A stretch of 64,000 bases of DNA from Tetramitus jugosus (Eukaryota; Protista; Heterolobosea): contig OW569371.1 of NCBI GenBank assembly GCA_937625935.1, forward strand, positions 415,055-479,054. The letters run 5' to 3'. The notes beneath the pieces were generated by a model that saw nothing but the letters and a program-made list of their open reading frames with translations, was not told the origin of the DNA and did no database searches. Positions 27,867 to 63,218 of this stretch are shown here, in pieces (within the stretch, counting starts at the first letter, position 1; every line of letters starts with the position of its first letter). A program made the translations under genes and the position numbers.

Positions 27867-30800
27867 ATGACTATTACTGAAGCTAAAAACTCCATTAACA
27901 ATATCCCAATCGCAATTGTTGGTATTGCATGTCGATTGCCAGGAGAGGCACAAGACGTTGAAAAGTTTTGGAATCTCTTAATGCACGAGAATGAGACCTG
28001 CTCTGCCATTCCAGCAGACAGATTCAACATTGAGAGATACTGCGCCAATGGCCAAGACAAATTGCATCCAATCAGTAAGACTGCTTATGGTCACTTCCTC
28101 AAGGATCCAATCGATCAATTCGATGCCGAGTTCTTTGGTATTTCAAGAAAGGAGGCTGCCTCCATGGATCCACAACACAGACTCCTCATGGAGTCCACTT
28201 ATCATGCCTTTGAAGATGCTGGTTTGCCTCTCGAAGTTGTTGCGTATGTTTTTTTTTTGAAAAACCACTTTTTTTTAACTGTTGTTCTGAATAAGCTCAA
28301 TTTGTTTACTAACAAACCAATTTCATTTGTCATTTTCAACTTGTGATAGTGGAACGAACACTGCTGTTTATGTAGGTCAAATGCAAAGTCATTACAATTC
28401 TTTGAGGACGAAGGAGCCTCTAGACACAAACAACCAATACAGTTACATGAACACCTCCAGTGCATACAGTGCTGCTCGTTTATCGTACTACTTCAATTTG
28501 ATTGGTCCATCCTTCCAATTGGATACCATGTGCTCTTCTTCTATTGTTGCCCTCCATTTGGCAGCTCAGAGCTTAAAGGTTGGAGAGTGTGATATGGCTA
28601 TTGCTGCTGGTGCCAATTTGAATTTTGATTTCCAAGATTTCGTTCGTATGTCCATTATTGGAGCTGCTGCCAAGGACGGAAGATCCAAGGCTTTCAGCGC
28701 CAATGCTGATGGTTATGCAAAGGGTGAAGGTATTGGTGTCGTTGTCTTGAAGAGACTTGATCAAGCCATTAAAGACAATGATAGAATCCATGCTGTCATT
28801 CGGGGATCTGGTGTGAACCACGACGGAAAGCGAAAGAATGGTATCACCATTACGAGTTCGATTGGTCAAAAGGACCTATTCGAGAGAGTTTACAAGGACT
28901 CCAGCATTGACCCTGCTGCTGTGACATACTTGGAGAGTCACACAACCGGTACTCTTGTTGGTGATCCTATTGAAGCCTCTGCTCTTTCCTCTTTCTTTGG
29001 AAAGGCTAGAAGAGAGGCTGGTATTGAAGGACCTGTTAGAATCGGTTCCGTCAAGGCAAACATTGGTCATACTGAAGCCATGTCTGGTATTGCTTCATTG
29101 GCCAAGGTGCTTATGATGCTGAAGCACAAACAAATTCCTCCAACACTCTTGTTTGACAAGTTGAACCCAAAGATCAACTTTGAGGAGTTGAACTTGAAGG
29201 TTGTAACTTCCCCAGAAGCTCTTCCATCCAAGTCATTGATTGGATTGAGCAGCTTCGGTATGGGTGGTACAAACGGTCACATTATTGTCGAGAGTTATGA
29301 GCGCTCTAGCGCCAGAGCAGCACCTCAAGCTGGATACTTGTTGCTCTTGTCAGCCAGAAGATCTGAAAAGGTTCTTATTGAAATTGCAAAGAACTTGAAG
29401 GAATTCGTTAATACTAGTATTGACAATGGAGCTGATCCAACTGATTTGTTCACTGATATCTGCCATACATATGCTGTGAAGCGGACACATCACGAAGTTA
29501 GAGCAGCAATTGCTTTCACTGATCTCGAAGATTTTAATGCCAAGATTGATGCTTTCGTCAACGCTGACAGAAAGGTTGGTGTACAATCTGCCACTGTTCC
29601 AGAGACTGAAGGTAACCAAAAACAAAAGATGGTCTTTGTGTTCTCTGGTCAAGGTCCACAATGGTTTGCTATGGGTCGCCACCTTCTTGCGTCTGAACCC
29701 GTCTTCCGTGCTTCTATGCATCGTATTGACAAAGAGTTGTCAAAGTACGTCGATTGGTCATTGGTTGATGAGTTGACTCAAAAGGATGATACTACCTCTA
29801 GAATCAACCAAACAGATTTTGCTCAACCTGGAATTTTTGCCATCCAAGTTTCTTTGTACGAACTATTGAAGTCATTGTCAATTGTTCCAGACATTGTTGT
29901 AGGTCACTCTGTTGGTGAAGTTGCTTCCGCATATGTTGCTGGTGCTTTGACTTTCGAGGATGCAATCCTTGTCATCTATGAGAGATCCAGACTTCAACAC
30001 AAGTGTTCATTTATCAACAAGGGTAAGATGCTTGCTGTTAACATTAGCGAAAGCGCCGCCAAGAAACTTATTGTTGGATTGGAAGATAAGGTTTCAGTTG
30101 CTGCTGTCAACAGTGCTACCTCTGTCACATTGAGTGGTGACGAAGAAGCATTGAAGCAAGTTGTAGAAATCATCAATAGCGATTCCGCTCTTTCCAAGGC
30201 CTCCAAGGTTTACTTGAGAACCAGTGCTGCATTCCACAGCGTTCACATGGACCCTATCAAGGATGAATTGCTTGAAGGATTGGCAAATATCAAGCCGCAA
30301 AAAACAACTATTCCTTTGTTCTCAACCGTTACAGGACAAAAGATCTCTGGTCTTGAGGTTGATGGAGAATACTGGTGGAACAATGTGAGAGGTGCTGTGT
30401 TGTTTGATGAGGCTATCAAGAATATTATGGATAGATACAATGCTTCATCTCCTTTGAAATATTGGATCGAATTGGCTCCTCATCCAGTGTTGAGCTCTTT
30501 CATTAAGGGTATTGTTGGTCAATACCAATCTGATGCTCAAGTGGTCCCTACACTGATCAGAAAGGAAAATGAGAATGTCTTGTTGAAGAACACTTTGGGT
30601 TCACTTTACATCTATGGTTACAAGTCCATTGATTTGAAGAGAATTTACTCTGCCGGTAAGCTCATCTCTGTTCCATCTTATCCATTCCAAAAGACCAAGT
30701 ATTGGATGGAAACATCAGAATCTTTGGAAGAAAGAACTGCAGCACCAACAAAGCAACACCCACTGCTCGGTAGCAGAGTGGTTCCTTCTCAAGGACCTCA

Positions 30801-33800
30801 ACCAATTTGGAGAAACCACATCTCCTTGTCGAATCCTAAACAAGAATACTTGAAGGATCACGTTGTACAAAAGTCGATCATTTATCCATTTGCTGGATTT
30901 ATTGAGAATATTGTGGCGGCCATCTGCGAATACCATGAAGTCAATCCTCTTGTCGGTAATTTGGCAACTGTGATTGCACTAAAGGATTTCCATGTTGGAA
31001 CAGCCATGCCATTGAAGCCTGATGATACTAGAATTGTTGAAACAATTCTATCACCTAACTCCAAGACTTTCCAAATTGTCAGCAAATTGAAGCCAGCTGA
31101 TACTGAACTTTTGACCACAATGGATAAGAAGGGAGACTTCTCAAGCAAGTGGGTCACTCATGCTCATGGTTCTTATGAAATCATCAAGAAGGAGTTCTTC
31201 ACTGAGGAGAATGTCGCTATCACACCTGAAATGTCTAAGGATGCTATGTATGATGCATTGTACAACAGAGGCTTGATGTATGGTCCTGCTTTCCAAGGTA
31301 TTTCCACAACAGAAGCTTCCAATGGAGAGATTTGGGGAACAATTGATGCTCCTGCAGAGATTGCCTCTGATGTAGCCAAGTATATTATTCACCCATCTCT
31401 TGTTGATTCATGTTTCCAAGCTGTACTAACTGGTATCATTGGCAAGGAGACAATGATTCCTGTTCACATGAAGCAAATGAACATCTTCCTCAGACCAGGA
31501 GTAATTGGTTCCATTGATCAACAAATTATTACCACTGCTCAATTCCACGAACGTGTCATGGGTAATACTGCAGCTAATCGTCAATTGTTAGACTTGAAGA
31601 TCTTCAACAAAGAAGAAAGAGGTCTTGTTTCTGCTATTACCATCGAAGAATTCGCGGTTCAGGAATTGGCCAGCGAAGATGATGACAAGGATGCAGGACT
31701 GATCCTTGTTAGAAGCTGGGAAGAGCTCAATAGAATTCCTTATGCTAATGTTCCTGAAACTGTGGATCTGTTGAAGACTGTTGACCAAGCTGAATCTGAG
31801 GACTTGAAGTCTAGCCCAGTTGTATTTGAATTGTTGTCAAAGATCATTGCTCACTTCTGCCTCAATGCTCTTGTGTCTATTAACGGATCAACTGATTTGT
31901 CATTGGATGCCATTCTTGCCAAGGTACCATCAAGCTCACATGCAATCATTCAAAAGTTCTTTGAGATTATCGAGGTCAATAGCCTTGAGTTCTCCAATGT
32001 ACAGAGCTTGCATAACATTCAATTTGAGGCATCTCAAATTGTTAAGCAATATCCATTCTTCCAACCATTTGTTGAGTTGGTTATCACTGTCGGTGTGGAG
32101 ATGCCTGAGATTCTTCTTGGTCACTCCTTGAAGAGTTCTGTTGAGAGCATCACTGGTAGAATCTCTGCCATTATCGCTCAAGCTGCTGTTCCATGTGTTG
32201 AATCTATTTTGACTTCTACCACATCCCCTCTCAGAATTCTTGAGGTCAATGCTGGAGAAGGACATTTGGCTAATCTTGTTGCTCATAACTTGACCAGCAA
32301 TGTTGAGTACATTTTGACGGATCCATCTGAGGATAAGGTCTTGGCAGCTGAGGATGCTTTGTCCAAGTTGACCACCAGAATTACCTACACAGCTTTCAAT
32401 CCTGCAGAGAAGCCACCTGCTCAAATCAAATCTGAGTCCTTCGATGTGATTATCTCGTCTGGATCTCAAAATGTTCAAAACTTGAAGAGTCTTCTTTCTC
32501 CAAAGGGTGTTTTGCTGGTTGTAGAACAAAGTGCTTGCCAAGCAATGGATGTCATTAACCAATTGATCTCAACTTCCACTCCATCAGAGATTTCAGTTCA
32601 AGAGTCCAAGCCCCTATCAGGCATTGCTACCTTGTCCGTCATCAGAAACTCTGGAAACCACGAGAGACAGAAGTGGTTGGTGTTTGCTGACAAGAATGGC
32701 TTTGCAAACTCTCTTGTTGAGCAGTTGTGTGAAAAGTACAACCAAGTAAGTGAAGATTTCATTGTGGTGACACCTGGATCTTCTTATGCAAAGAACTCCA
32801 ACAATGTCACTATCGATATTACCAATGTTGAACACTATCACCAATTGCTTGCTGATGTGCCTGCAGTGAATAGAGTAATCTTCTCATGGGCCATGGATAT
32901 TCCAACCTTGTCAGAGGATCCAGAGTTGATGTTTGTCAGCCAAGAAAATGTTTGCTACAGCATTACTTGCTCTATTCAAGCATTCGAAAAGGTTCACATC
33001 GTTCCTGAATTCTTTGTCGTCACAAGTGGCGCACAGGCTTTAGATTCATCCAATGTATTGAACATTAATCAGTCTGTTGTTGTCGGTTTCATGCACAGCG
33101 CTGCTGGCGATTTCTTCAACACTCAATCCAAATTGATTGATGTCGATCCTGCTTTGAGTACTGCAATTAATGCAGAGCAAACTGCTGAAGAAATTATGTT
33201 GAACAACAGAAACTCCTTCAATGAGATTCACTTGAGTGGAAACAAGAGAATGGCCTTGTACTACAACAAGAAGGCACCAAATAGTGTTGACTACCGTAAC
33301 TTTAGAACTATTGTACCAGCAAATGATGAGACTAATTTCAGAGTTGCTGTTCCTAAGACAAGATTGTTGAGAGATGTTTTCTTTGAAGTCATCCCTAGAG
33401 TGGCACCAAAGAGTGATGAAGTTGAAGTGAAGATTAAGGCTTCAGCCATTAACTTCAAGGATATCTTGAAGATTAGAGGGCTTCATCCAATCACTGTCAA
33501 ATGTAATGAAGATGCTAAGAAGAAGGAACTTGACTACTGCAACTTGATTGGTTTAGAAGCTGCTGGTGTTGTCACAAAGGTTGGCGATAATGTCACTAAT
33601 GTCAAGCCAGGTGATAGAGTTGTTTACTATAGTGTTAATGATGCTTTGTTCAAATCTTATAGCATTCAACCTGCCAAGTTGGTCGTTAAGATTCCAGACA
33701 ATATGACATTCGAACAAGCTTCGGCTGTTCCTATCGTTTTTATGACTGCATTCTACTGCTTGTTTGAAAAGGCAAAGTTGAAGAAGGGACAATCTGTTCT

Positions 33801-36486
33801 CATTCATTGCGCTTCTGGTGGTGTTGGTCTTGCTGCCATTCAACTCTGTCAAAACGCTGGAGCCACTGTATTCGCTACAGCTGGTACTGACAAGAAGAGA
33901 CAGTTCTTGAAGGAAGTTGTTGGTGTTGAACACGTTTTTAGCAGCAGAAATGCTAGATTCTACGAAGAGATCAAGAAGATTACCAATGGACGTGGTGTTG
34001 ATATGATTATCAATTCTATCAGCGGAGAGATGTTGGTCAAGTCCGTTGACTTGTTGGCCACATCTGGTAGCTTCTTTGAACTCGGAAAGCGTGACATCTT
34101 TGATAATCGTCATATCAACTTGTACAAGCTAAGAAACAACTGTGCATTCCATGTTATCGATTTAGAGTTGGCTTTGTTGCATGGTGATTCGAGCGAAGGT
34201 GTCATCATGTTGCAAGAAGCCATGAGACAATACGCTGAGAATCTGATTAAACCTATCCAACTGCAAAGCTTCGATATTGCTGATATGAAGGAAGCCTTCG
34301 AGTTGCATCAAAAGGCAACCAGCATTGGTAAGTTGGTTTTGAACTTCGATTCTCAAAAGCCAATTCAAATCGTGTCGCATGAAGACAGCCATCCTACCAA
34401 CATCAGAAATGGTACTTATTTAATTACGGGAGGAACTGGTGGTGTTGGTTTGACCTTCGCCAAGTGGTTGATCCAACATAAGAATATTAAGAGAATTGTT
34501 TTGACATCCAGAAGACAGCCTGCAAAGGATGTTCAACAACAAATTGATGCTCTGAATGTTGGTGGAGTCAGTGTGGATGTTCTCACCGCTGATGTTGCCA
34601 ACCTTGCTCAAATTAAGAGTGTCATTGACAATATTGAAGCCAATAGTGCTCCTTTGAGAGGTGTAATCCATGGTGCTGCTGTTATTGAGGATGCTCTTGC
34701 ATCTAACATGAGCTTCGAATTGCTAGCTAAAGTTTTGAGACCAAAGATCAGAGGTGCTGTTTACTTGCATCACCTAACTCAACACTTGCCATTAGACTTC
34801 TTCTACATGACTGCATCTATGAGTAATGTTATGGCTCTCAACGGTCAAACCCATTACAACGCAGCAAACAATTTCTTGGATTGTTTGGCTGTTTTGAGAA
34901 GAAGACAAGGACTCAGTGCCATGTCTGCCAGTTTGACCGCCATCTCTGGTGCTGGTTTCGTCACAAGAAACAAGACTGTTGAGAGATTGTTGGGTGCTGT
35001 CGGTGTTGTTCCTGTTCACGTTGAAGAAATTGTCGAGTTGATGGAAGTGTTGAACAACAACGAATTTGTCACTCCTATCATTTCTCATAAGAACTTTGTT
35101 GCTGACTTCAAGGGAACTTATGTTCCAAGTCCACTTGAGAGATTGTTCTCCTCCGATGAATCAAACAAGGGAGAGAGTACCGAAGAAGAAAACAGCGCTG
35201 CAAACTCTGCTGATAACGTCTTGAATGAAATCCACAACTTTGTTTCCCAAGTGCTTGGTACAACTGTTGAGAACATTGCAGTTGATAAGTCATTGAATCA
35301 ACTTGGATTCGATTCATTGATGTCTGTTGAAATCAGAAATTGGATGGCCAGCAAGTACAAGAAGAACTTGCCATTGGTTGAATTGTCCATTGAGACTGTT
35401 ACCACTTTGGCTCAAAAGATTCTCAATGCTTCGAACAAGAAGCAATCTGGAGATGCCAGCTCTGGTTCAACCGATGCTTCTAACAACAGCGAAAATAGTC
35501 ACAGCACTCATGTTGATAACCAAAGCATGAACAGAATTAATCCACTGCATACTACTGAGAAGCCAACAATGAGACTAATTTGCTTCCCATACATGGGTGG
35601 CTCTTCCAATGACTTCAAAGACTGGCCAAAGCAATTGCCAAGTGATATTGAAGTTTATGGTGTAGATTACTTGTTGAATATCACTGATAAGCAAAGCCTC
35701 TATGATTGGAGTACTTTGATGGAACTATTGCTCGAAGAATTGAAACCTTTGAGCTCTGTTCCATTTGCATTCTATGGTCACAGTTTGGGAGCTTCAGTTT
35801 CATTCGAATTCACTCGTTATTTGAATGCTCATAACCAACCACTCCCATGCCACTTGTTCATTGGTGCTCAGGTTTCTCCAGGAATTGTAACTGTTTCTTC
35901 AGAACTCTACCAACACATGTTGAAGAGTGATGATGAGGTTATCGCTCAAAAGGTAATTGAGTATGACTTGTTGCCTGGCTATTTGATGAAGATTGAATCC
36001 TCAGAAATGGAAGAGAAATTAGAATCAGTCAAGAAACTCATTGCAATGCCAAAGTTGATTGCTGAATTCAAGCTCCACGCACACTATGCACACAATGATG
36101 ATGAATTCGGTGATAATCAAGTCAATGTTCCATTAACCGTCTACAATGGAACCAATGATAAGTTGACATCTAATGCCGATATGAACTTGTGGGCAATGCA
36201 AACCAACAACAAGTTTGAATGTCACCAAATTGAAGGTAGTCACTTGTTCATCAATGAGACTGCTGGCCTTCAAACAGTGTTGAACTTAATCACTCGTTGC
36301 TTGAACACACACAAACAAACTGAACAACGAACTGAAGTCGTTGCAAGTTCTCCAAGACAATTGAGACATGTTGGCAGTGGTGAGGAATTGAAACTGATTG
36401 CTGAACTGACAAAGGAACTCGAAAGAGAAAGAAATGCCAGAAAGCAACTCGAAGAAAGATTGAGAAACGCTGAAGCCAACCATTAA
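27867..36486 (+). CDS. Highly reducing type I polyketide synthase KS-AT-DH-(pseudo)MT-ER-KR-ACP-TE, 2837 aa; intron 28244-28349
   Basis: GTATGT...TACTAAC...GATAG intron joins ORFs 27867.. and 28327.. in frame (VVA|GTNTAVYVG). KS DTMCSSS / HTTGT / NIGHTE; AT GHSVG and AFHS; DH HVVQKSIIYP; MT-like ILEVNAGEG; ER IHCASGGVG; KR ITGGTGGVG and YNAAN; ACP GFDSL; TE GHSLG...GSHLF. Confidence 0.96.
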
Positions 36487-38607: not shown

Positions 38608-39711
38608 TTAGTTTCTTTGTTCGACCAAGTCAGAGACCTTGACCTTACCGATATAGTTGTTCAAGACAGATCCCAAGTACAAGTATCCTTCGTGAACATC
38701 AGCTTCAGCGGTTCTTGCGTACAAGGTACCGTTGGAGGATCTAATTTCTTCGAGAACTCTACCCTTGGAGTCAATCTTCTTCAACAAGCCAGCAGTGTCA
38801 ATCAATCCCAATGTGTTCAATGGAGGAATGTAAGCAATAGCAAGAGCTTGCAACTTGGCATAGTCTTGAATGGCACTCATTTCTTCAGAAGTGTAGGAGA
38901 AGAGACCAACATAGAAGTTTCCGTTACCGTCTGGCTTAATGTTGTCATTGTAACCACCAATGTCGTCAACCAAGACTTCATTTTGACCAGCGTTACGTCC
39001 CTTCAAAATGTACTTTCTAATCTTTCTGGCAGAACATTCGTTGATGGCCAAGAATTCTTCATTCTTGCTGACAGCAATACCGTTGGCAAATCTCAAGTCA
39101 GAAATCTCAACAGACAAAGCACCAGTCGTCAAGTTCAACTTGAACAATCTTCCATCAGGGTTGTTTGCAACAACAATGGAAACAAAGGACATTCTAGTGT
39201 AGATTTGGCTAGAATCAGTAAAGTACAAAGTCTTTTCGTCATTGGTCAAATAGATACCGTTGAGCATCTTGAATCCGACACCATTGTATTGGTTGACAAT
39301 GACTTGAACGTTGGATGGGTTGGATCGAGGGATCTTGAGAATGCCTCTGTAAGCATCAGCGACCCACAAGTTTTCAGCAGAGTCAAATTGGAGACCCAAT
39401 GGTCTGCCGCATGTTGGCTCATTGAGAACAGATGTGCCACAGACAGCTCTTTGTTCAGCAGTCAATGTTGGAACAGAGTAGGCATAGACGGTGATTTCAC
39501 CAGTCACTGCGTCAATTCTTCTGATGGAACCATCAGAAACACTAGTATACAGGTTGCCTGCTTGATCCCAGACAAGGGATTCTGGACCGTTGAGAACACC
39601 GAGTCCAATCTTTTCGAGGTGATCGAAAACCTTGACCTTTGTCTTGGTGGCCATACAGAAGGCGAGGCACATGAGGAGAGCGCTCAACACAATAGCAGAT
39701 GCAGATCTCAT
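38608..39711 (-). CDS. Strictosidine synthase-like / APMAP-like six-bladed beta-propeller
   Basis: Signal peptide; GPESLVWD, EPTCGRPLGLQF, VADAYRG, LYFTDSS, DGRLFK, LRFANGI, GYNDNI, LYLGS. Confidence 0.92.
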   Translation of the reverse strand: MRSASAIVLSALLMCLAFCMATKTKVKVFDHLEKIGLGVLNGPESLVWDQAGNLYTSVSDGSIRRIDAVTGEITVYAYSVPTLTAEQRAVCGTSVLNEPTCGRPLGLQFDSAENLWVADAYRGILKIPRSNPSNVQVIVNQYNGVGFKMLNGIYLTNDEKTLYFTDSSQIYTRMSFVSIVVANNPDGRLFKLNLTTGALSVEISDLRFANGIAVSKNEEFLAINECSARKIRKYILKGRNAGQNEVLVDDIGGYNDNIKPDGNGNFYVGLFSYTSEEMSAIQDYAKLQALAIAYIPPLNTLGLIDTAGLLKKIDSKGRVLEEIRSSNGTLYARTAEADVHEGYLYLGSVLNNYIGKVKVSDLVEQRN

Positions 39712-40274
39712 TGTTTTAGATAGTTAGTTATATATATTTACGAGTTGGTTTGTTTTGTTGTTTGGTAAAGAAGGAATTCTAGTTCACACACAAGATTCGA
39801 CTTTTTAAGGGTGATTTCGCGCAGAGACAGATGTCATCGGAGGTTATTCGGAGATTAAACGGCGGAATTCGCTTGTGCGTTGCGTCACCAATCATTAGCG
39901 ACAACCTTAATTTTCTGTTTCTTCGCCTGATTCACATGTTCGGTATGCTTGGAAGAAATGTTCCGCTACTTGTATGGGAAGTTTGAAGAAGGGAATAACG
40001 TTCCATTGGCGATCTCAGTGATTGACGAGAAAGCAAAGTAGGATTTGATGATGTCAATTGGGTAGAGAGGTGATGAGCTTCGAACGAAGTTGTACGAAAT
40101 TGTGTTATTCATTTCACATTCCTAGATCCTTCGCGATTCTCAGTGATTGATAAGTGAGCAAAGAAGGGCCTGAACAGCGTCATTTGGGATTGAGAGATGA
40201 TTGGCATCGAGCGATGTGCGTGATTTCAGGATGCCGGTGTTGTGAAAAGGTATGTGGGAAGTTTTAATCGCCTA

Positions 40275-54296: not shown

Positions 54297-56080
54297 GGCA
54301 CAGTTTTTGTTGAATGAAGAAGTTTCCTGAGGTTCCAGATTTTTCAGGATTTGTTTTTTCAGACCAATGCGCCACACAATTTTCCATCTTTGGAAATTGC
54401 GCGTGACAAAGAAGGAGGTCAACAAGTTGAGGAAAAGGTAGGTCAGAGTTGTGAGAGTGGATTGTTCGCTTGTGTGAAGGGAAAGTAGAATGCAGTGTGT
54501 GAACTCAAGAATGTTTTATTTCTTTGAATTGTTCATTCTCGACAAGGTACACATCGCACCCAAAACATTAGTAGTCATCGCATGATCGTAGACATGACAT
54601 CTTGCCTAAATAGAACAACAGAGGCAGCACCAGCATGATCAAGTCACATAGTCAAGCACCTTATTGTATACGTATGACCGGTATGGGAGCGTCCAGATAT
54701 TATTTCTTACGCCCCCCTAGGGAGGGGGTCTGATAAATTTATTCAAATATTTATTCATAGGGGGTCTCTTGATCCCAATCCTAGTAGGAGAATTAATGTA
54801 ACGTTCGAATTTACAGGAAAATGAATTATTCAAATTTATTCAAAACAGGCAGGGAGAGGGGTCAGAGGTGAATATAATATCTATCCTCAGTTAAATTTTT
54901 CATCCGTACTGCATAACATTGCAGTTTTGTTCATTAAATCCGCATATGCCAACTAACTACAACTGATAGAAGTATCAAGATGACGGGACAATAATACAAC
55001 TAGTGTCGATAAGAATTTCCATTAATACCATGAAAGAACTGGAAAAGATATCACAGACCTTCAAAAACTGATCCCATTATTATAAATCCTGTTGATCCTT
55101 CTTTAGACTTAAATTAATTCGACAAATGAGTAAACGATCTCTGAGCTAAATCAATAAGTGTGACTCAATTGACCATAATTTTCTTCTTTTGAACCACTGA
55201 TCGGAAAAATATTTACATAAACATTAAAAAATATTTCCAAGAACAACAATGATGCTGTCATTGAGTACCACTCGGGCAAAGGAAAACCGGTTAAATAATG
55301 TGTTGGAAAATGAATCTAACTGGATCACAACGTGACATTATTATCAGCGATGAGTGACAAAATATCGAAGAATAAGATTCTCTTCATTTGCTATCATAGA
55401 ACAAAAGAGATCTTTCCACACGAAATTCGAAATTAGTGGAATTGTGACTGAATCCAGCACCCAGCTCAAATATTTGGCTTCAACCTGACGAAGAGTTTGA
55501 ATCTCAAACTATGACCGTTGATCATATGTATCCCTTATGTACCACTTCAAATTGTTGGATAAACTGTTTTGGGCATAATCGAGGAAGTTTCCTCTGATAT
55601 ATATTAGTTCCTCTCTGGGGTGAATTATGAGTTAATGTTCGTTGATGAGGTTTAGAATTGATTGAAATCTACTTTTTTCTTTTTCTTTGTTCACATTTAG
55701 GTCCCCATGCAGACTTTAATTGTGGATACATTGAGGTTTTCCTATTTTCGCGCGCAACACAAATTCAAAGTAAAGTAAAATTTGTGCCGAGCGAAGAAGA
55801 AAAGAACATTTATTTCACGTAGTGTAGACAGAGAATAGTATTCATTTATTAGAATAAAGATACTGTAGTTCAGAGGAAGCCTACACTTACTATTCGGCCA
55901 GCGAAACTAAGGACAATTCAATCGTCATTGGTGCTGCCTCAAAATCATCTTGCGAATTAAAAGACAACACCTTCGAACCCTCTTGATAAATCAGAGAGAA
56001 TGTCGAAATAGCAACATTGTTTTCTTCAATGAATTGCTTTCAGTTCAAAGTACGATCTTACCTTTCTACGAAAATGCATT

Positions 56081-56977
56081 TCACAGGTAGGAAGTGAAAA
56101 TAAACACGACCTTTTCTTTTTGACCAACACCTCCTTTGGTTTCGATGATAGCATCCTGGACCGACCTTAGAACTTCTTGATACAATTTGACAGTTTCTGC
56201 CATCTCACTTTGATTCCATGCATAATTAATCCAGTTCCTTATTTGCTCTGCACTGATGTTTGCATTATGTAGTACATTATTGGCATACCTAACATTGTTG
56301 TTGAGATGTACCGTGTTCTCTTGAAGAGTTTCACTTGCTTCAGAAAGAGTTGATGGTGAACATTCGGTGCTTATTGTCAAGATATGATCGTCCTCCGTAT
56401 ACCTAATCCAAACCGCACTCAGCTCGTCATCGTCTTCAAGAATTTCCACAGAATCAACATTACAAGGATAAGTGATTCCATGAATCTTGATGCCATCCTC
56501 CGTACCAAGTTTGATCAGTCTAGCTCTGGCCACGCCTTTGTGATTCTTGGTAAGAATAACCGTATCACCCTCTGTTGACCCATTGTTTTCCTCCACCAAC
56601 TTCTTCCTGAAATCCGAAGCCTTTGATCTGAGGGCTCGAGCATAGTCTTCGGATGTTCTAGTGGAGGGGAAGTTAGGATTCTTATCCTTCATGTACTTAC
56701 CGATGTTGTATGTGTGGTGCAACAGTACAAACTCAATCATTGCAATGAGCTCATTAGGTTTGTATGATTGCCCTCTTGTTTTTGCATTTCTTTCGTTGAG
56801 TTGCAGGACTGTCAGCCACACGCTTTTGACCTTTCTGACTACTATCCATCTAACAGTACTGTGGTAGTATGATTCTGTTTTGTTGAATTGTGATGTAGGA
56901 TTGTTGTAAACTACATTCAATAAAATGCTGTACAATAATTGTAAAATACATTCAACAAATATTTGGCTGAAAAACAC
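56081..56977 (-). CDS. Subtelomeric orphan ORF (gene or pseudogene), true start unresolved
   Basis: 298 open codons with protein-like composition. A further coding-like segment (QFIEENNVAISTFSLIYQEGSKVLSFNSQDDFEAA...*) lies downstream to 55890 in another frame. Confidence 0.5.
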   Translation of the reverse strand: MFFSQIFVECILQLLYSILLNVVYNNPTSQFNKTESYYHSTVRWIVVRKVKSVWLTVLQLNERNAKTRGQSYKPNELIAMIEFVLLHHTYNIGKYMKDKNPNFPSTRTSEDYARALRSKASDFRKKLVEENNGSTEGDTVILTKNHKGVARARLIKLGTEDGIKIHGITYPCNVDSVEILEDDDELSAVWIRYTEDDHILTISTECSPSTLSEASETLQENTVHLNNNVRYANNVLHNANISAEQIRNWINYAWNQSEMAETVKLYQEVLRSVQDAIIETKGGVGQKEKVVFIFTSYL

Positions 56978-57163
56978 AATGATAGCAATTCAACAGCTAT
57001 CAGTGCTCTTGTTACACCTTCCTCCTCCTCCTCCTGTTCCACTCACTGTATTGTCCTCTCCCATGACCATCGATATGGTCATTCAAATCCAGTTGGTCCA
57101 ACTTCAAAAGCAGTACAAGTCGCTCATACTGCAGCTTGAGGACATGGAGGGATGTGACCCCAT

Positions 57164-57293
57164 GGGGGGTTTGGTTTTGGGTTTGGTTTTGGTTTTGGAC
57201 TTTATATTCGTTTCTGAACCGACAAAATATTGCCTTTTATGGAAGGGGAGTGTCTAAATATGGTTTTGGGAGGTTTTTGAGTTTGGGTTTGGT
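57164..57293 (+). repeat. Internal degenerate telomere-like tract
   Basis: GGGGGGTTTGGTTTTGGGTTTGGTTTTGGTTTTGG (57164-57198) and TTTGGGTTTGGT (57282-57293), same strand polarity as the terminal TTTGGG array. Confidence 0.75.
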
Positions 57294-57469
57294 GTTTATG
57301 TCATAAGTCCAGACCCAACCCAAAGGACTTTTCAGTACAACTTTTACTCATCTCAACGAGCTCTAACAGGATTTAACAGGATTAAAACTGTATCGTCTCG
57401 AAGAGACGATCGCTCCCTGTTGTAATTAACAGATTTTAACTGCAACAGGATTAAAACTGCAGCACCGAA

Positions 57470-57506
57470 CTATCATTGCACTGGCAGCGCTAGCTGACAG
57501 TGCTGA
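57470..57506. repeat. Conserved 37-bp palindromic site, copy A (downstream of YR-2)
   Basis: CTATCATTGCACTGGCAGCGCTAGCTGACAGTGCTGA; arms GCACTGGCAGC / GCTGACAGTGC (10/11 complementary) around a 4-nt centre; 36/37 identical to 60433-60469. Confidence 0.9.
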
Positions 57507-57550
57507 CAGAAAAAATATGAGTGATTATTTATTCTACTGCTCTTCAATAT

Positions 57551-59719
57551 TTATTCGTCCTCTTCTCCAGAGAGCTCAATAACAAGAGAATTTTCACTAT
57601 CACTCTCTGACTCATACTGTATATGAGCGAACTTTACCTTGAGCTTTTCCTTTTCCTTGGTAAATTTATCTTCAACTTTCTGTATTTGGAGTTCTCTTTT
57701 TCTCTTGAGATTGTTCAACATCAGCTTAAAATTACCATAGGACAAATTTGTGTCATCAACTGAAGTCTTGTTTTTCCCCTTGGACTGTTTATGAGAGGAT
57801 AACAATGTTTCCAAATTCTTTTCATAGTATTTTTCAACAAGGTTTGTAGCAGAATAAGCTTCCTCTATATTTCTGATTCTCTCATAGAGTGCTTTCTTCA
57901 TCTTACTATCAATCTCCTGTTTCTTTTCCTTGACCAAAGCTCGATACTGAAGATCTTTTTTGAACTTATCCTCAACTTGATACCTATTATCTCTGATCAT
58001 TGTTGTCCAGAACTTTGAGAAAGCAATACCAGTATTTTTTGAAGCTGCACCTACTGAACGATCATGAACTTCCTTCGTCATTGCTTTGTCTAATTTTGGA
58101 TTAGATGATCTGAATTGCTCTTTCATCTGCTTTGGTGGATTCAACCTTCTAACCAGAGGAAACCATTTCTGAACATTTGTAGTGGTATCACCCTTAATTA
58201 TCAGATTCATCTCTTTCTCATCGGTAATATGACAATTTGCAACTGATGGTTCAGAGAGCTCATCACCACACAAATATCCCTTGTTAGTAGCCAAAGAGAC
58301 AACAACAGCCATAGCATGTTCACCTTCATCTCCTTCTTGAAAGTGATTAATAGCAGTAAAGTGATTTGTTACCCATCGATCATAAGGTTTCAAGAATTCA
58401 ATACTTTTCCAGCCAACAAATTTGATCAATGTTTGAAGTGTTCTCTCATCATGCATTCCCTTGTTTCTGATAGTATCAACCAACAAGGTACTAACAACTA
58501 GACCACTTCTACAAGATCTTGTTGATATAGTCTTCTTCAAAACTCTTCTGGAATGGTTCTTCATTGCATTGCTCATTGCCTTATTGTTCATGGATTCAAA
58601 TTCTTGGCCAATATTGCAAAATACAGGTCTATCACCCCTGTGTTCTTTGAGGTTAAAATTACCTGAAATAATGCATTGAGCAGCAGAACCAGCTTGAAAC
58701 AGACCTCTACAATCTGCCAGATAAATCAACAGAGCAACATTTGGACATTTCTTCAGATTAAGAAATCCTGGCAATGTTTGATCCCAAAATTGATCAGACA
58801 ATCTCTTTTCTTTGATGACTTTCATAGTGAGTGTGATACAAACCTTATCATTCACCATGATTTTTTCCCAAGTCAAGTGTCTGAGTTTCATCGCATTAAG
58901 TGATACTCCTCTCAAACCTCTTGCTCTTGAAACAGCTAACAATGCATTAAGCCTTGATCCTTCTTCAGTAAGCAAATTACAATTGTTGCGTAATTTGATC
59001 CAATCAGGATTCAACAATGGTTCTACTTTGAAAGTGTTATGACCAAACTTTCTCAACAGAGACCTAAGCATTGCTTGAATATCTTCTTGTTCCTGCTTTC
59101 TGAAGTCTGGACTCTTCTTTGTAAGATGAAGATAGCTCAACAGACCATAACAGAAAGTACTGGAAATAGTAGTAAATGAATACTCCTTGCTTACTCTACT
59201 CCAATACAGGAACATAAGGAAAGTCATCTTCTGAAGTGGATAAGGAAATGGCTGAATAGACTCAAAGTCTGAAAACTTTTCACTCATAGTTGAGAGGAAA
59301 GTGAAATAGTCTCTCAGCATATTGAAACAGCTTCACACTATTCTTTGCGTATGAAGCTTGATCCTTTGCCACTTCAACTGAGAATGATGCCTGTGCCAAA
59401 TTTGTTGCATCCTCAATATCTGGAAATGGGATATCAGCTAACAAATCCTCTTGCTCCCTCTCATTTACCATGCTACGAATAGGTGTGAACATCAAATCTG
59501 ATACTCTTCGAGTAGAGTTCTGAGAGACGTTCACAAAGTTAAGATCCTCATCTGAGAGGAGTCTTTGAACTTCGGATTGAAACTCAGACCTTTGAAACTC
59601 TTGACTTAAATCAAAAGCTTCTTCAGTCTCTTCAAAATCGAAGTGATCGGGCAGATCCTTTTTTGAAGTTGTTCCATTGCATAGGCTTTGAATGAATTCT
59701 GTGGATTTGTACTTGACAT
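57551..59719 (-). pseudogene. Tyrosine recombinase YR-2 (DIRS/Crypton-like); 5' region broken by two frameshifts, catalytic ORF 57551..59320 intact
   Basis: RARGLR (R), KVIKEK (K), STRSCRSG (HxxR position), FVGWKS (W), LKPYDR (Y). Upstream frames, including 59280..59534, align with the N-terminus of YR-1 (NSTRRVSDLMF vs NSSRSIRDLEF; YAKNSVKLFQYAER vs YAPATVNLFIFAER). The frameshifts may be real or assembly errors. Confidence 0.8.
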
Positions 59720-60167
59720 CTACAACACAGATTATGAGTGCTCATTCTGGTAAGAGCAAGCAAGAACTTGTTTGATTCTATTGCTCAAGTTCGATTACGT
59801 TTTGACTTCTATGCGAGAGACTATCAAGTAGATACCAGTATACTAATGGCTAGTTGACTAGCAGCCGGGACCATTACAACAACGACAAAGTCTTTCGATA
59901 ATGGCCACTGAGTGTGAACCGGTGGCATACGAGGTACGCACTTACATCATGATAAAGGTCTCAAATAAACGAAGCAGCAACGTTACGAACGAGAGAAAAT
60001 GACCAACAAGTCCTTGCAGCCTCACCGAGGCACATAAGATCAGGAGAGTTAGTACTATGAGCAACACATTACAAATGAAAATAAAATAAAAACCTTGCCT
60101 TTTGGTAGTATCAGAAATAGTAGTTGTTGATTTGTTTGTTTGTTTGTTGTTAGTTGAAGTTGTCAAA

Positions 60168-60195
60168 TTTGTCGGTTGGCGCTCTGCTTTTATAG
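60168..60195 (-). promoter_or_regulatory. Putative promoter motif upstream of YR-2 (TATAAAA...CCAACCGACAAA)
   Basis: Minus strand CTATAAAAGCAGAGCGCCAACCGACAAA followed by an AAC-rich leader; same arrangement as 62687-62716. Confidence 0.55.
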
Positions 60196-60341
60196 ACACA
60201 GGTAGATTCCGAATCAGTTATTTTGGGTAGTTCAAATAAAATTTCCGGAGATTCTGTTCCGGTTGAATCTTTTTTATTTGAAGTTCTCGGTGGGGGTTTT
60301 ATTCTTTGCCTGTACATTTCTGGAAGGTGCATCTATATACT

Positions 60342-60366
60342 GGGGGGGTTGGGGTTGGGTTTGGGG
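60342..60366 (+). repeat. Internal degenerate telomere-like G-tract
   Basis: GGGGGGGTTGGGGTTGGGTTTGGGG; four G-runs (G4-competent), telomere polarity, 66 bp from palindromic site B. Confidence 0.75.
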
Positions 60367-60432
60367 ATACATCCTGGATTCCCCAACCTAAGGAGAGCTA
60401 TTTCCTTATATATCATGTTTTTTTTTTGCTAG

Positions 60433-60469
60433 CTATCATTGCACTGGCAGCGTTAGCTGACAGTGCTGA
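60433..60469. repeat. Conserved 37-bp palindromic site, copy B (downstream of YR-1)
   Basis: CTATCATTGCACTGGCAGCGTTAGCTGACAGTGCTGA; the only difference from copy A is in the 4-nt centre (GTTA vs GCTA). Confidence 0.9.
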
Positions 60470-60493
60470 ACATCTATATGAAAATTTGAGCTT

Positions 60494-62623
60494 TTATTCA
60501 CTATCGCTGGAGAGAACAATCTCCTCAATATCATACTCCTCTTCACTCTCAGGTTCTACCACTCCCTTATATTGCTCATCCAATTCTCTCTTGAGTCTCT
60601 GGTATTTTACCTTGATTGCTTCAATTTCGTCCTTCTCCTTCTTTGCAAGGACACCTACCTTTCTCTTGTATGTTCCCTCATTCAAAACTAGAGTTGTACT
60701 CAACTTTCCTCTCTTCTTAAATTTCTCTGCCAATTTCTGTGCAACAAATAGTTGAGCTTTCTCATCGGCATAGAACTTTCTTATGAGAGAAGTAGCACCA
60801 TAAACCCTTTCAATTGAGACCTTTCTATCTCTCTTCTTCTCATTAATGTACTGTTGGTCCTTGGCCAACAATATTTTGCACTCAGCAGTTTCCGCCTCTT
60901 TCAAGCAGTTTCTCTTCCAATAGGCAAGCCAAGCAATATCCTTACCACTATCATCATTGATAATTTCATTATCCAAATCAGAATCAAGACTTCTATGATA
61001 ATCCTTGAAGTAATTTGGAGGTTGAAGTCTTCTAGCCTTTGGAGCCCACTTCTTTGGCTTTTCACTATTGCACTCATGATAGATGATAGACTGAATGAGG
61101 TCAACATCAGTAATATGAGCATTATCATCAATAGAAGCTATTGGAACATCCTCATCTAAGAATCCCATATCCTTAGCCAATTGACTCAAAGTCCTAAATG
61201 ATTCAATTCTCTCAGATGGTTCTTGCAATGAATTGATGGATGAGAAATGTTGAGTAATCCATCTATCATAAGGTTTGAGACTCTCCTTATTCTTCCAGTG
61301 AACAAAGGTTGCAAGTGTATCAGCTACCTTGTCATCAAACACTCCATTGTTCTCAATTCTGTTTCCCAACAGACAAGTAACAACCAGACCAGATCTCATT
61401 GATCTTGTAGAGTACCTCTTGTCAATAGTTGCAGAGAGACTCTTAATAGCATTACTCATACTCTTGTTAGTCCAAGTAGTAAACTTTCCATGGGGAGTGA
61501 ACAATGGTTCATCTTGTAGACCAGGATTCAAAGTGAAGTCACCCTTAATCAAACATTCAGCAGCACTACCTTGCTCAAAAACTCCTCTGATATCAGCCAG
61601 GTAAATGAGTAATGAGATGTTTGGACACATCTTCAAGTTGACCCAACCAAGCAAGTTCTGTCTCCACACATTAGCAAGTAAAACCTTGTCCTTGACAATC
61701 TCCATATCGAGACAAAGACGAATCTTGTTGTCAGCAACAATCTTGGTCCAAGTCAAATGTTTCAACTTGACATGTTCAAAAGAATCAGCTCTGAGACCTC
61801 TTGCTCTGCCTTGTGCTAAAACAGCATCCAATCTTGCACCAGAATCAGTTGTTTGATCACATAAGAGTCTTAACTTGACCAAGTCAGGATTCATCAGAGG
61901 TTCAACCTTGAACTTGTCATTTCCAAACTTTCTGAGTAATGCTCTCAAGGTGTTCTTGATATCAATGGTAAATTCAGCTCTCAAATTTCTATCTCTCTTG
62001 GTCTTGTAGAGAAAAGCCAAAAATCCATAACAGAAAGTACTCTGAATGGTAGAGAACTGATAGTTCTTATCAACCTTGAGCCAATAGAGATACATCATCA
62101 AAGTGAGCTTCTTCATTGGATATGGAGTAGGTTGATACTGGAGGAAGTCTGGAAACTTGGAATCCATCTCTTGCAAGAAAGAAAAGTATCTTCTTTCAGC
62201 AAAGATGAACAAATTAACAGTAGCAGGAGCATACTGTGTATTGGAGACATTAGCAGTAACAGTAACTGCAGCCTCATTCAATCTTCCCATTTCACCAAGA
62301 GAATCAAAAGTAACCTGAGGGAACAAATCATCATCAGCTCCACCTCTAAAAGAGTCATTGATGTCAGTGAACTCTAGGTCTCTGATGGATCTTGAACTAT
62401 TGACAGAGTTATTCAACAGAGTCATCTCAGATTCAGCAATTGTTCTTTCGACTCTAGCCTCCAAGTCATCACCTTCATTGAGTTCAGCCAAGTGACCAAG
62501 GTCAAATTCCTCATGATCATCCATTTTTTCAAGATCCTTGAACAGTTGGTCAACAGTTTTCTCAAAGGTAGCATCAGCAGGGCAAGCAGCAGCAGGAATA
62601 GTAACAGCAGTAATAGCAGACAT
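60494..62623 (-). CDS. Tyrosine recombinase YR-1 (DIRS/Crypton-like), intact, 709 aa
   Basis: Core-binding-like region (YAPATVNLF...RYFSFL...PYP...LMMYLYWL...STIQ). Catalytic domain RARGLRAD (R), IVKDK (K), YSTRSMRSG, FVHWKN, LKPYDR (Y). Basic helical C-terminus and acidic tail. No RT/RNase H nearby. Confidence 0.85.
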   Translation of the reverse strand: MSAITAVTIPAAACPADATFEKTVDQLFKDLEKMDDHEEFDLGHLAELNEGDDLEARVERTIAESEMTLLNNSVNSSRSIRDLEFTDINDSFRGGADDDLFPQVTFDSLGEMGRLNEAAVTVTANVSNTQYAPATVNLFIFAERRYFSFLQEMDSKFPDFLQYQPTPYPMKKLTLMMYLYWLKVDKNYQFSTIQSTFCYGFLAFLYKTKRDRNLRAEFTIDIKNTLRALLRKFGNDKFKVEPLMNPDLVKLRLLCDQTTDSGARLDAVLAQGRARGLRADSFEHVKLKHLTWTKIVADNKIRLCLDMEIVKDKVLLANVWRQNLLGWVNLKMCPNISLLIYLADIRGVFEQGSAAECLIKGDFTLNPGLQDEPLFTPHGKFTTWTNKSMSNAIKSLSATIDKRYSTRSMRSGLVVTCLLGNRIENNGVFDDKVADTLATFVHWKNKESLKPYDRWITQHFSSINSLQEPSERIESFRTLSQLAKDMGFLDEDVPIASIDDNAHITDVDLIQSIIYHECNSEKPKKWAPKARRLQPPNYFKDYHRSLDSDLDNEIINDDSGKDIAWLAYWKRNCLKEAETAECKILLAKDQQYINEKKRDRKVSIERVYGATSLIRKFYADEKAQLFVAQKLAEKFKKRGKLSTTLVLNEGTYKRKVGVLAKKEKDEIEAIKVKYQRLKRELDEQYKGVVEPESEEEYDIEEIVLSSDSE

Positions 62624-62716: not shown

Positions 62717-62726
62717 GGCAAAAAAA

Positions 62727-62800
62727 AATCTCGGAAGAATCTCGGAAAGAATCCCGCACGCGATCCCGCAAAAAAAATCCACCGCACGCGGATCCCGCAC
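62727..62800. repeat. Short clustered repeats (AATCTCGGAA x2, ATCCCGCA x3) between YR-1 and the telomere
   Basis: Read directly from the sequence. Confidence 0.6.
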
Positions 62801-63218
62801 GACGAATCATTGAAATATCCCGTGAGGAATCCTAACTGACCTTCAACATTTTTACAGTGAACTGGACGTCGCGACTTGGTAGTATGTTGAAGTTGTGCTT
62901 TTAGAGATATTCAGCGCAGGCAAAAATAGTTAGGATGTATTATAAGATGATTCTCAATAGAACACAATGTTATCTACGTACTCTATTGTAAAGAATGAGA
63001 AAGCAACATAGAATGACGGAGGGTGCAACTCCCGAAAATATTTCGAAGGGCAAAAGAGTATAAAAGTGAATCTCTGATGCACTGATCGAAATAAACCAAC
63101 AAACTCATTAAACATAGATAAAGAAGGTTAATTTTTGAAATCTGGGTGAAAAATAGACAGAGAAATGTGTTGGTAAACTTTTTGAGTTTTTAGGTAGAAA
63201 AAAAAAAATTGAAGTCGA

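Follow-up and report, generated by a model that had tools for sequence, protein, structure and literature searches.

At the right end of a chromosome of the heterolobosean protist Tetramitus jugosus, two genes of the tyrosine recombinase fold, YR-1 and YR-2, are each followed by a copy of the same 37-bp site. We tentatively propose that, in a multi-copy family of such genes, this site serves as a conserved signal of the downstream end, and that the family's own recombinase uses it as a folded hairpin of single-stranded DNA (ssDNA). The stretch analysed here, called the window in the following, comprises 64,000 nucleotides (NCBI GenBank assembly GCA_937625935.1, contig OW569371.1, positions 415,055 to 479,054 of the forward strand), and all coordinates refer to it. 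The firm part of the proposal is an undescribed recombinase family of Heterolobosea with a conserved site downstream of its genes: no description of either the family or the site was found in the literature, where most subscription papers, Repbase and supplements (those of the Crypton paper may list heterolobosean entries) were outside the scope. The steps of the mechanism that go beyond this anatomy we infer.

Site A (57470..57506, + strand) and site B (60433..60469, + strand) form a direct repeat with a spacing of 2963 bp and are identical at 36 of 37 positions. This conservation had been pointed out in a first-pass annotation made from the sequence alone and is borne out by the repeat search, as is the position of the sites 44 and 24 bp beyond the stop codons of the open reading frames (ORFs) 57551-59320 and 60494-62623, both on the - strand. 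That annotation spoke of a 37-bp palindrome; the conservation does cover 37 bp, while the palindromic part is limited to a core of 26 bp (57478-57503 in site A, 60441-60466 in site B), an inverted repeat with 11-bp arms, one mismatch and a 4-nt centre (11-4-11), and the leftmost bases of the site are conserved and unpaired. As first described, the lone difference between the two sites (C at 57490, T at 60453) lies inside the 4-nt centre, and the G/A mismatch of the arms is retained in both. Folding predicts three additional pairs beyond a 2-nt bulge on the + strand, and as DNA the + strand folds at -12.3 kcal/mol as compared to -9.5 kcal/mol for the - strand. The 11-4-11 pattern has two matches in the window at up to three mismatches, where 0.01 are expected from shuffles; no Rfam match at gathering level was found for the hairpin.

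A recent duplication as the source of the 36 identical positions is ruled out by the state of the surrounding DNA. The adjoining genes have diverged to 59% DNA identity and agree at 29 of 65 fourfold-degenerate sites, and the flanks are unalignable (11 of 50 positions match on the left, 7 of 24 on the right), both of which the first reading of the sequence had also claimed. Between the coding regions of YR-1 and YR-2, the best ungapped window of 37 nt reaches 29 of 37 positions. A general 3′ signal of host genes was likewise rejected: the best hairpin after the 20 other ORFs of the window folds at -9.2 kcal/mol, and none of these ORFs is followed by the site pattern (0/20), such that the site is not common after unrelated genes within this stretch.

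How the site behaves in other copies was assessed solely on assembled contigs of public runs. The stretch is present in 17 runs from 11 studies, of which X1, X3, X4, X5 (a groundwater metagenome), X9 (an oligo-dT RNA run) and X17 are referred to here. Over 60400-60500, run X1 has seven contigs with eight site pieces. Four of the six right-hand contexts lead into four different recombinase genes, and the other two end 64 and 123 bp past the site. The first two contexts are YR-1 and YR-2; the third, on a 2362-bp contig, is a paralogue that aligns to 61261-61420 (31 differences in 160 bp) and to 61701-61816 (14 in 116 bp); and the fourth, a 932-bp contig matched between comparisons by its depth, joins 60472 to YR-1-like sequence at 61208. 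The left flanks listed for the X1 site pieces are all different, and other copies align to site B from about 60430 to 60472. Site A itself lies within an unbroken 927-bp contig of X1 with no differences, and one X1 contig carries a tandem pair of sites 26 bp apart. In run X5, 15 contigs fall on the stretch and show at least three of the X1 contexts; X17 has nothing on site B. The contexts in X1 and X5 thus indicate that the site travels with the gene family, on the 3′ side where this is readable. The earlier suggestion that a cis site is under strong selection, here one associated with recombinase genes, is supported: the site lies beside at least four different recombinase genes and after none of the 20 other ORFs.

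On the left, the picture differs between the two sites. Site A has a sharp junction: a multi-copy repeat, here called R (57046..57461, its left limit given at bin resolution), stops 8 bp before the site. At site B the boundary is less clear, because the roughly 70 bp to its left (60361..60432) are common to other contexts in X1 and X4, one of them without the telomere-like tract that precedes site B in the window. Repeat R and site A are separated by 8 bp (57462-57469), which start with GCACCG, close to the GCACTG of the arm and 16 bp before it. One further left flank seems, by eye, to align with these 8 bp, which, from their letters, could be a third binding repeat. By rough sums of depth, which is no copy number, the site amounts to about 12 single-copy equivalents, repeat R to 46, and a multi-copy segment between the 5′ region of YR-1 and the telomere (62926..63218, from contig comparison) to 12-14.

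The centre of the site is the part that varies. It is readable in three cases, GCGCTAGC in site A (57487-57494), GCGTTAGC in site B (60450-60457) and GCGTAGC in the tandem contig, which lacks the base at 60453 and is otherwise identical, so that its centre is 1 nt shorter. All three fit the formula of the extra-stable DNA mini-hairpins, GCGNNAGC or GCGNAGC (PMC13037366), and do so on the + strand only. For two of them a melting temperature near 70 °C has been measured, 69.5 °C for GCGTTAGC and 70 °C for the triloop with N=T, as compared to 39 °C for the RNA form of the model octamer, and of 64 triloops only GNA gives this stability (PMC13037366). Among the 562 hairpins of the window with a stem of at least 5 and a loop of 3-4, a G...A loop occurs on one or the other strand in 84, and the full motif is found at sites A and B only.

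YR-1 (60494..62623, - strand) is an intact gene for a protein of 709 amino acids and is transcribed away from the telomere; alignment and fold identify R278, K313, R407, R410, W443 and Y452 as its catalytic set. Its paralogue YR-2 (57551..59719, - strand) is not intact: it starts with an ATG at 59719 and shifts frame twice in its 5′ part, near 59660 and 59307, before a residual open frame of 589 amino acids (57551-59320), which retains the catalytic set. An assembly error as the cause of these frameshifts was rejected, since a 2039-bp contig of X1 matches exactly, with the proviso that X1 may be the source of the window; at 59307, other contigs of X1, X3 and X4 have a 2-nt difference. The two proteins are 40% identical (232/573) and fall into separate, well-supported subfamilies in a tree of ten rows, from which two short loci were left out.

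YR-1 is apparently expressed. Contigs of the oligo-dT run X9 cover it from 60523 to about 62657 and also include a paralogue, and of the differences listed for YR-1 in this run, 16 of 23 are synonymous (pN/pS 0.11). An oligo-dT library can contain DNA; the coverage of X9 extends over 9 of 30 bins, all over YR-1 and its edges, with no cover on YR-2, from which we draw no conclusion. The X9 contigs end at 60523 in adapter and none lies on 60400-60500; contigs cannot show a transcript end, and this was not counted. Upstream of YR-1, at 62720-62810, there are short repeated motifs, TCTCGGAA and TCCCGCAC, which are possibly promoter elements; the upstream region of YR-2 does not align to that of YR-1.

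Neither protein has a Pfam match at an E-value of 0.01. Since the model of full-length YR-1 was poor (predicted local distance difference test, pLDDT, 57), it was replaced by a domain model of residues 110-490 from 12 sequences (pLDDT 79). Foldseek with this model returned Cre first (E 6.8e-7), XerA next (1.7e-5), then XerH and integron integrase; no protelomerase (TelK/TelA/ResT) is among the fold matches listed. A structure comparison with 3nkh gave a Z-score of 12.1 and a root-mean-square deviation of 3.2 over 184 aligned residues. As modelled, the proteins possess the core-binding and catalytic domain fold of the tyrosine recombinase superfamily, to which YR-1 adds a helical C-terminal extension of 200 amino acids without a confident match. 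The family profile puts R278, W443 and Y452 on the LLR, GGW and NY motifs of Cre, as a weak match (E 0.014). In an alignment of 27 sequences (YR-1, P0008 and 25 of 89 clusters chosen for length), conservation is 27/27 for R278 and for K313, 21/22 for R410, 21/22 for W or H at 443 and 19/21 for Y452. The position of the HxxR histidine, which is fixed by one member with a canonical HSLR, corresponds to R407 and is arginine in 20 of 23 sequences and histidine in one, a variant of the catalytic set.

A profile search among 1.84 billion representatives found the 89 clusters at E ≤0.001. Among 20 of these clusters and six earlier matches, the members that carry an organism name come from Willaertia magna (7), Naegleria lovaniensis (2), N. 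gruberi (2) and N. fowleri (1), the others being unnamed or metagenomic, and the named family members so far are thus all Heterolobosea. Two N. lovaniensis members (P0082/P0105) have adjacent locus tags, which suggests another tandem pair, and one N. gruberi member (P0024) has a C-terminal chromodomain (E 4.7e-10). No loci of the family were found in viral contigs or prokaryote genomes, nor any tblastn match in phages or any PHROG, and the site pattern has no matches in viral contigs or prokaryote genomes either; a viral or virophage origin is unsupported given the absence of family loci from viral contigs and phages. A metagenome scan for the family gave two loci, both ending before the 3′ end. 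At locus L002, degenerate CCTAAA-like repeats (1-40) stand at the start of the contig, and a distant recombinase homologue lies about 1.2 kb from them, oriented as the genes of the window are. The two are separated by a divergently read Myb gene (139-1011, - strand), with matches to Myb (E 1.2e-6) and, below cut-off, to Myb_Rap1 (E 3.6e-5).

As to the class of element, the best explanation, judged by sequence features, would be a Crypton-like DNA element of Heterolobosea that encodes a recombinase only. With Cryptons it shares a eukaryotic host and a tyrosine recombinase as the only enzyme, in the absence of a reverse transcriptase (RT) or DDE transposase (PMC3212892). Cryptons, however, have terminal direct repeats of 4-6 bp or none, and the string "palindrom" occurs 0 times in the main text of that paper; the elements described here have no GCR1_C domain, a feature of CryptonF, carry RxxR in place of HxxR, have a conserved hairpin site after the gene and are stacked at a telomere. 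GCR1_C gave no Pfam match in eight members of the family nor in 19 further members. The Atlas neighbours are near-tied at 0.96-0.97, with NDC10_II, a domain derived from Cryptons, nearest (0.97), DUF3435 second (0.97) and oomycete clusters among them, and two family members have weak Pfam matches to NDC10_II below cut-off (E 2.6e-5 and 0.005). DUF3435, by contrast, has no Pfam match in the window proteins or in family members and the units carry no cargo, unlike Starships, with which recombinase-driven mobility and the second Atlas neighbour are shared (PMC10104507). The DIRS, TATE and VIPER elements have an RT-RNase H gene in the unit, whereas here there is one gene per unit of about 3 kb and no RT; DIRS-like elements of different anatomy are on record for N. 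gruberi (PMC3266345).

The two units lie head-to-tail at one chromosome end, each about 3 kb long with one gene. The window ends in a telomere, (TTTGGG)n, with 130 copies on the + strand from 63219 up to its last position (64000). Read toward the chromosome end, repeat R, which includes a telomere-like tract (57163-57198), comes first; it is followed by site A, YR-2, a second tract, site B, YR-1 and the telomere. The second tract, between the two units, is G-rich (60341..60366, + strand), and part of it can pair with 60380-60388. Since other copies of R (seven contigs of X1 and four of X4) diverge in sequence after 57461, the YR-2 unit appears to have been joined to repeat R 8 bp left of site A. 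There is no HUH/Rep or helicase gene in either unit, the recombinase being the sole coded enzyme, and from 54425 to the telomere no further ORF of at least 100 amino acids has a Pfam match.

We favour, at a strength just short of calling it probable, a reading of the site as the centromere-side end signal of a Crypton-like element, which is read by its own recombinase and builds stacks at chromosome ends. The + strand, which runs 5′ to 3′ toward the telomere and which we take to be the lagging-strand template for forks heading to the telomere, would fold once exposed. At the foot of the hairpin, or immediately to its left, the recombinase would then exchange one strand with a target that is only loosely defined; replication would resolve the junction, as for the attC sites of integrons; and everything distal to the site, that is gene, promoter and chromosome tip, would end up on the target. 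Two such events, the first placing the YR-2 unit onto repeat R and the second placing the YR-1 unit outside it, would produce the order seen in the window, and the telomere-like tracts left of each site would be remnants of earlier ends. Both tracts contribute to predicted hairpins (60347-60388, -7.1 kcal/mol; 57157-57170, -4.9 kcal/mol) and may thus be more than simple telomere remnants.

A folded substrate is favoured because the centre varies in sequence and length and yet keeps a motif of single-strand stability, and because the mismatch and the bulge are conserved. An attC-like hairpin had been listed as one alternative in the first-pass annotation, and in our analysis it appears to fit best, with three of three centres agreeing with the mini-hairpin formula while one of them changes length. 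For attC, the exchange of one folded strand and the resolution of the junction by replication are on record (PMC2727003). Common to attC and the present site are an imperfect inverted repeat just downstream of a gene, a tyrosine recombinase as partner and a variable tip; unpaired bases set the strand choice in attC, and here a mismatch, a 2-nt bulge and a variable loop are predicted (PMC2727003). The attC sites differ in being 57-142 nt long, having R and L boxes and being poorly conserved, whereas the site described here is 37-43 nt long and highly conserved (PMC2727003). Furthermore, attC follows passenger cassettes, and here the site follows the recombinase gene itself, in a eukaryote. That recombinases can copy out one specific strand is known from bacterial SE elements, which however need four genes (PMC9345347). 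Three further papers (PMC3537659, PMC11296320, PMC10288648) leave this reading unchanged.

Several observations weigh against the use of a folded strand by the recombinase. Both arms are conserved in sequence, beyond what pairing would require, and no compensatory change is seen among the copies, which would suit a duplex-binding protein equally well. The centre is readable in three of the eight X1 pieces, two of them from the window itself, and three other X1 pieces carry 1, 3 and 4 differences from site B whose positions were not located. The match to the mini-hairpin formula was noticed post hoc, the folding energy is equalled by that of a coding window at 49318, and the copy with the deletion sits in a tandem pair and may be a dead copy. 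The left boundary is inconstant, with 8 bp at site A versus about 70 shared bp left of site B, the telomere linkage stems from a single chromosome end, and neither cleavage nor strand transfer, an empty site or a new insertion was observed in the contig data. The octamer of site A, GCGCTAGC, is absent from the melting table of PMC13037366, and the natural mini-hairpins recorded there are used by primases and by a phage RNA polymerase and not by recombinases.

The conserved arms lead to the alternative that survives best, though we consider it unlikely: a duplex crossover of the loxP/FRT kind, in which both arms are bound and both strands exchanged, such that recombination between A and B excises a circle of 2963 bp and circles reintegrate elsewhere. 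Such a crossover agrees with the Cre-like fold, with the direct orientation of A and B and with arms that are conserved base for base, and circular intermediates have been proposed for Cryptons (PMC3212892). Cre is the closest solved fold and shares the spacing of nine residues between W and Y; the geometry of the site differs from loxP, its centre is variable, and YR-1 with its C-terminal extension has 709 amino acids. Arms of 11-13 bp around a fixed spacer of 6-8 bp are the rule for such sites (PMC3212892), a size rule from which the 11-4-11 site departs; it can be read as 11-4-11 or 9-8-9 with one arm mismatch. In such a crossover, moreover, the centres of the partners would be expected to agree in sequence and in length, yet it is in the centre that the readable copies vary, one of them by a 1-nt deletion, and this makes the proposed A x B excision of the circle less favoured. 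An earlier study required homology at spacer positions 2-7 (summarised in PMC1479339); in one in vitro screen reported in the same paper Cre tolerated many spacer mismatches, a tolerance under which the difference between the A and B centres would still be compatible with crossover. The unrelated left flanks are unexplained by a duplex crossover unless every target already carried a site. No A/B hybrid joint is found among the 15 joints listed, with 18 more beyond the listing; contigs drop rare variants, and absence is not implied.

The known natural mini-hairpins, at the complementary-strand origins of phages G4, St-1 and alpha3 (with a GTTA loop) and at the plasmid site ssiA (PMC13037366), raise another possibility, namely that the site is an ssDNA signal for priming or for stopping replication, which would be read by primase or replication proteins of the host and left uncut by the recombinase. 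That paper cites priming sites of phages and plasmids as well as the N4 promoter, with no recombination site or eukaryotic chromosomal site among them. A hairpin with a short tail is also the anatomy of the Helitron 3′ end (10.1101/2025.11.06.686955, PMC6431247), though the units have none of the HUH/Rep or helicase genes that go with it, the recombinase being all that they encode, and no CTRR end is common to the copies seen. We regard a host-read signal as improbable.

Much the same holds for a signal at the level of RNA, a hairpin for cleavage, termination or stability at the 3′ end of the recombinase transcript, as in the hairpin rule of mimiviruses, which we likewise rate as having a small chance. 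Both genes have an ordinary AATAAA at the nearly constant distance of 21-23 bp before the hairpin: on the - strand at 57528..57533, which in the sense of the mRNA is 21 bp ahead of site A, with a second AATAAA that overlaps the YR-2 stop codon, and at 60493..60498, overlapping the stop codon of YR-1, 23 bp before site B. Folded as RNA, the mRNA strand also reaches -16.3 kcal/mol (z -3.2 and -3.9). However, the mimivirus hairpins are not conserved in sequence and take the place of the usual signal (PMC4402537), whereas here the hairpin is conserved and AATAAA is present, which makes the mimivirus-type signal suggested earlier a poor fit. AATAAA also occurs near the ends of 13 of the 20 other ORFs of the window without such a hairpin. 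The loops on the mRNA strand (UAGC, UAAC and UAC) have no common motif, the G...A pattern being on the opposite strand, and an RNA signal leaves the tandem pair of sites 26 bp apart unexplained.

A telomere-resolvase target, where the site would become the covalently closed hairpin end of a linear element with the TTTGGG telomere at its other end, had been listed as well and is the least probable of all. The recombinase fold, the site beside a telomere and a basic residue where HxxR has its histidine (R407, in 20/23) would agree with it, since topoisomerase IB and the protelomerases have K or R at that position; a replicated hairpin end, though, has the same DNA on its two sides in inverted orientation, and here the flanks on the two sides are unrelated in all copies seen, with no axis of inverted duplication. 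The lack of a protelomerase among the listed fold matches is inconclusive in this respect.

Returning to the favoured reading, in which a recombinase acts on a folded site, its widest form, that the element grafts its gene together with a telomere onto other chromosome ends in Heterolobosea, seems doubtful, as one chromosome end has been seen. Stacks of this kind are known from TATE of Leishmania (PMC6681497), from Terminons (PMC6431247) and from Helitrons of Paramecium (10.1101/2025.11.06.686955), all of which share with the window head-to-tail arrays at chromosome ends and telomere-like tracts between the units. In Paramecium Helitrons and Terminons, the 3′ end also points inward. What differs are the enzymes: TATE is a retroelement with RT, Terminons have RT and hammerhead, and Helitrons have a HUH-helicase, whereas the units described here have a recombinase only.

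Further left, the genes of the window are those of an ordinary protist, with Pfam matches to lipin, a hybrid histidine kinase, glycosyl hydrolases, a polyketide synthase, and ankyrin and F-box proteins. Left of repeat R, 54685-54882 is a repeat of about 200 bp in very high copy number, with a depth of up to 4971 in X1 as compared to about 21 for single-copy pieces, and with varied left flanks. The 10 bases with which it begins recur, as their reverse complement, at the end of its other copies, and by its structure it looks like a miniature inverted-repeat transposable element (MITE) which is truncated here. The ORF at 56081-56989 (- strand) has two homologues, one with a precomputed PF26133; other contigs have indels over 55000-56500, and one joins the MITE-like repeat at 56516, such that this region is probably another element relic. 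An iterative type I polyketide synthase extends across two ORFs (27867-36486, + strand) that are probably split by an intron near 28250-28340. Antisense to the whole of a gene resembling strictosidine synthase, there is an open frame of 368 codons (38608-39723) with no Pfam match.

Eukaryotic transposons with a recombinase as their only enzyme are mostly known from sequence, with ends of a few bp and no defined cognate site. The combination of an intact and apparently expressed enzyme with a sharply defined site, common to subfamilies that are about 40% identical, makes the mechanism testable with one protein and a few oligonucleotides, and a Cre-like enzyme with a compact natural site would be of interest as a tool. 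If the site does work in folded form, it would be a eukaryotic counterpart of the single-strand recombination of integrons, and a recombinase route would be added to the ways in which mobile elements occupy chromosome ends.

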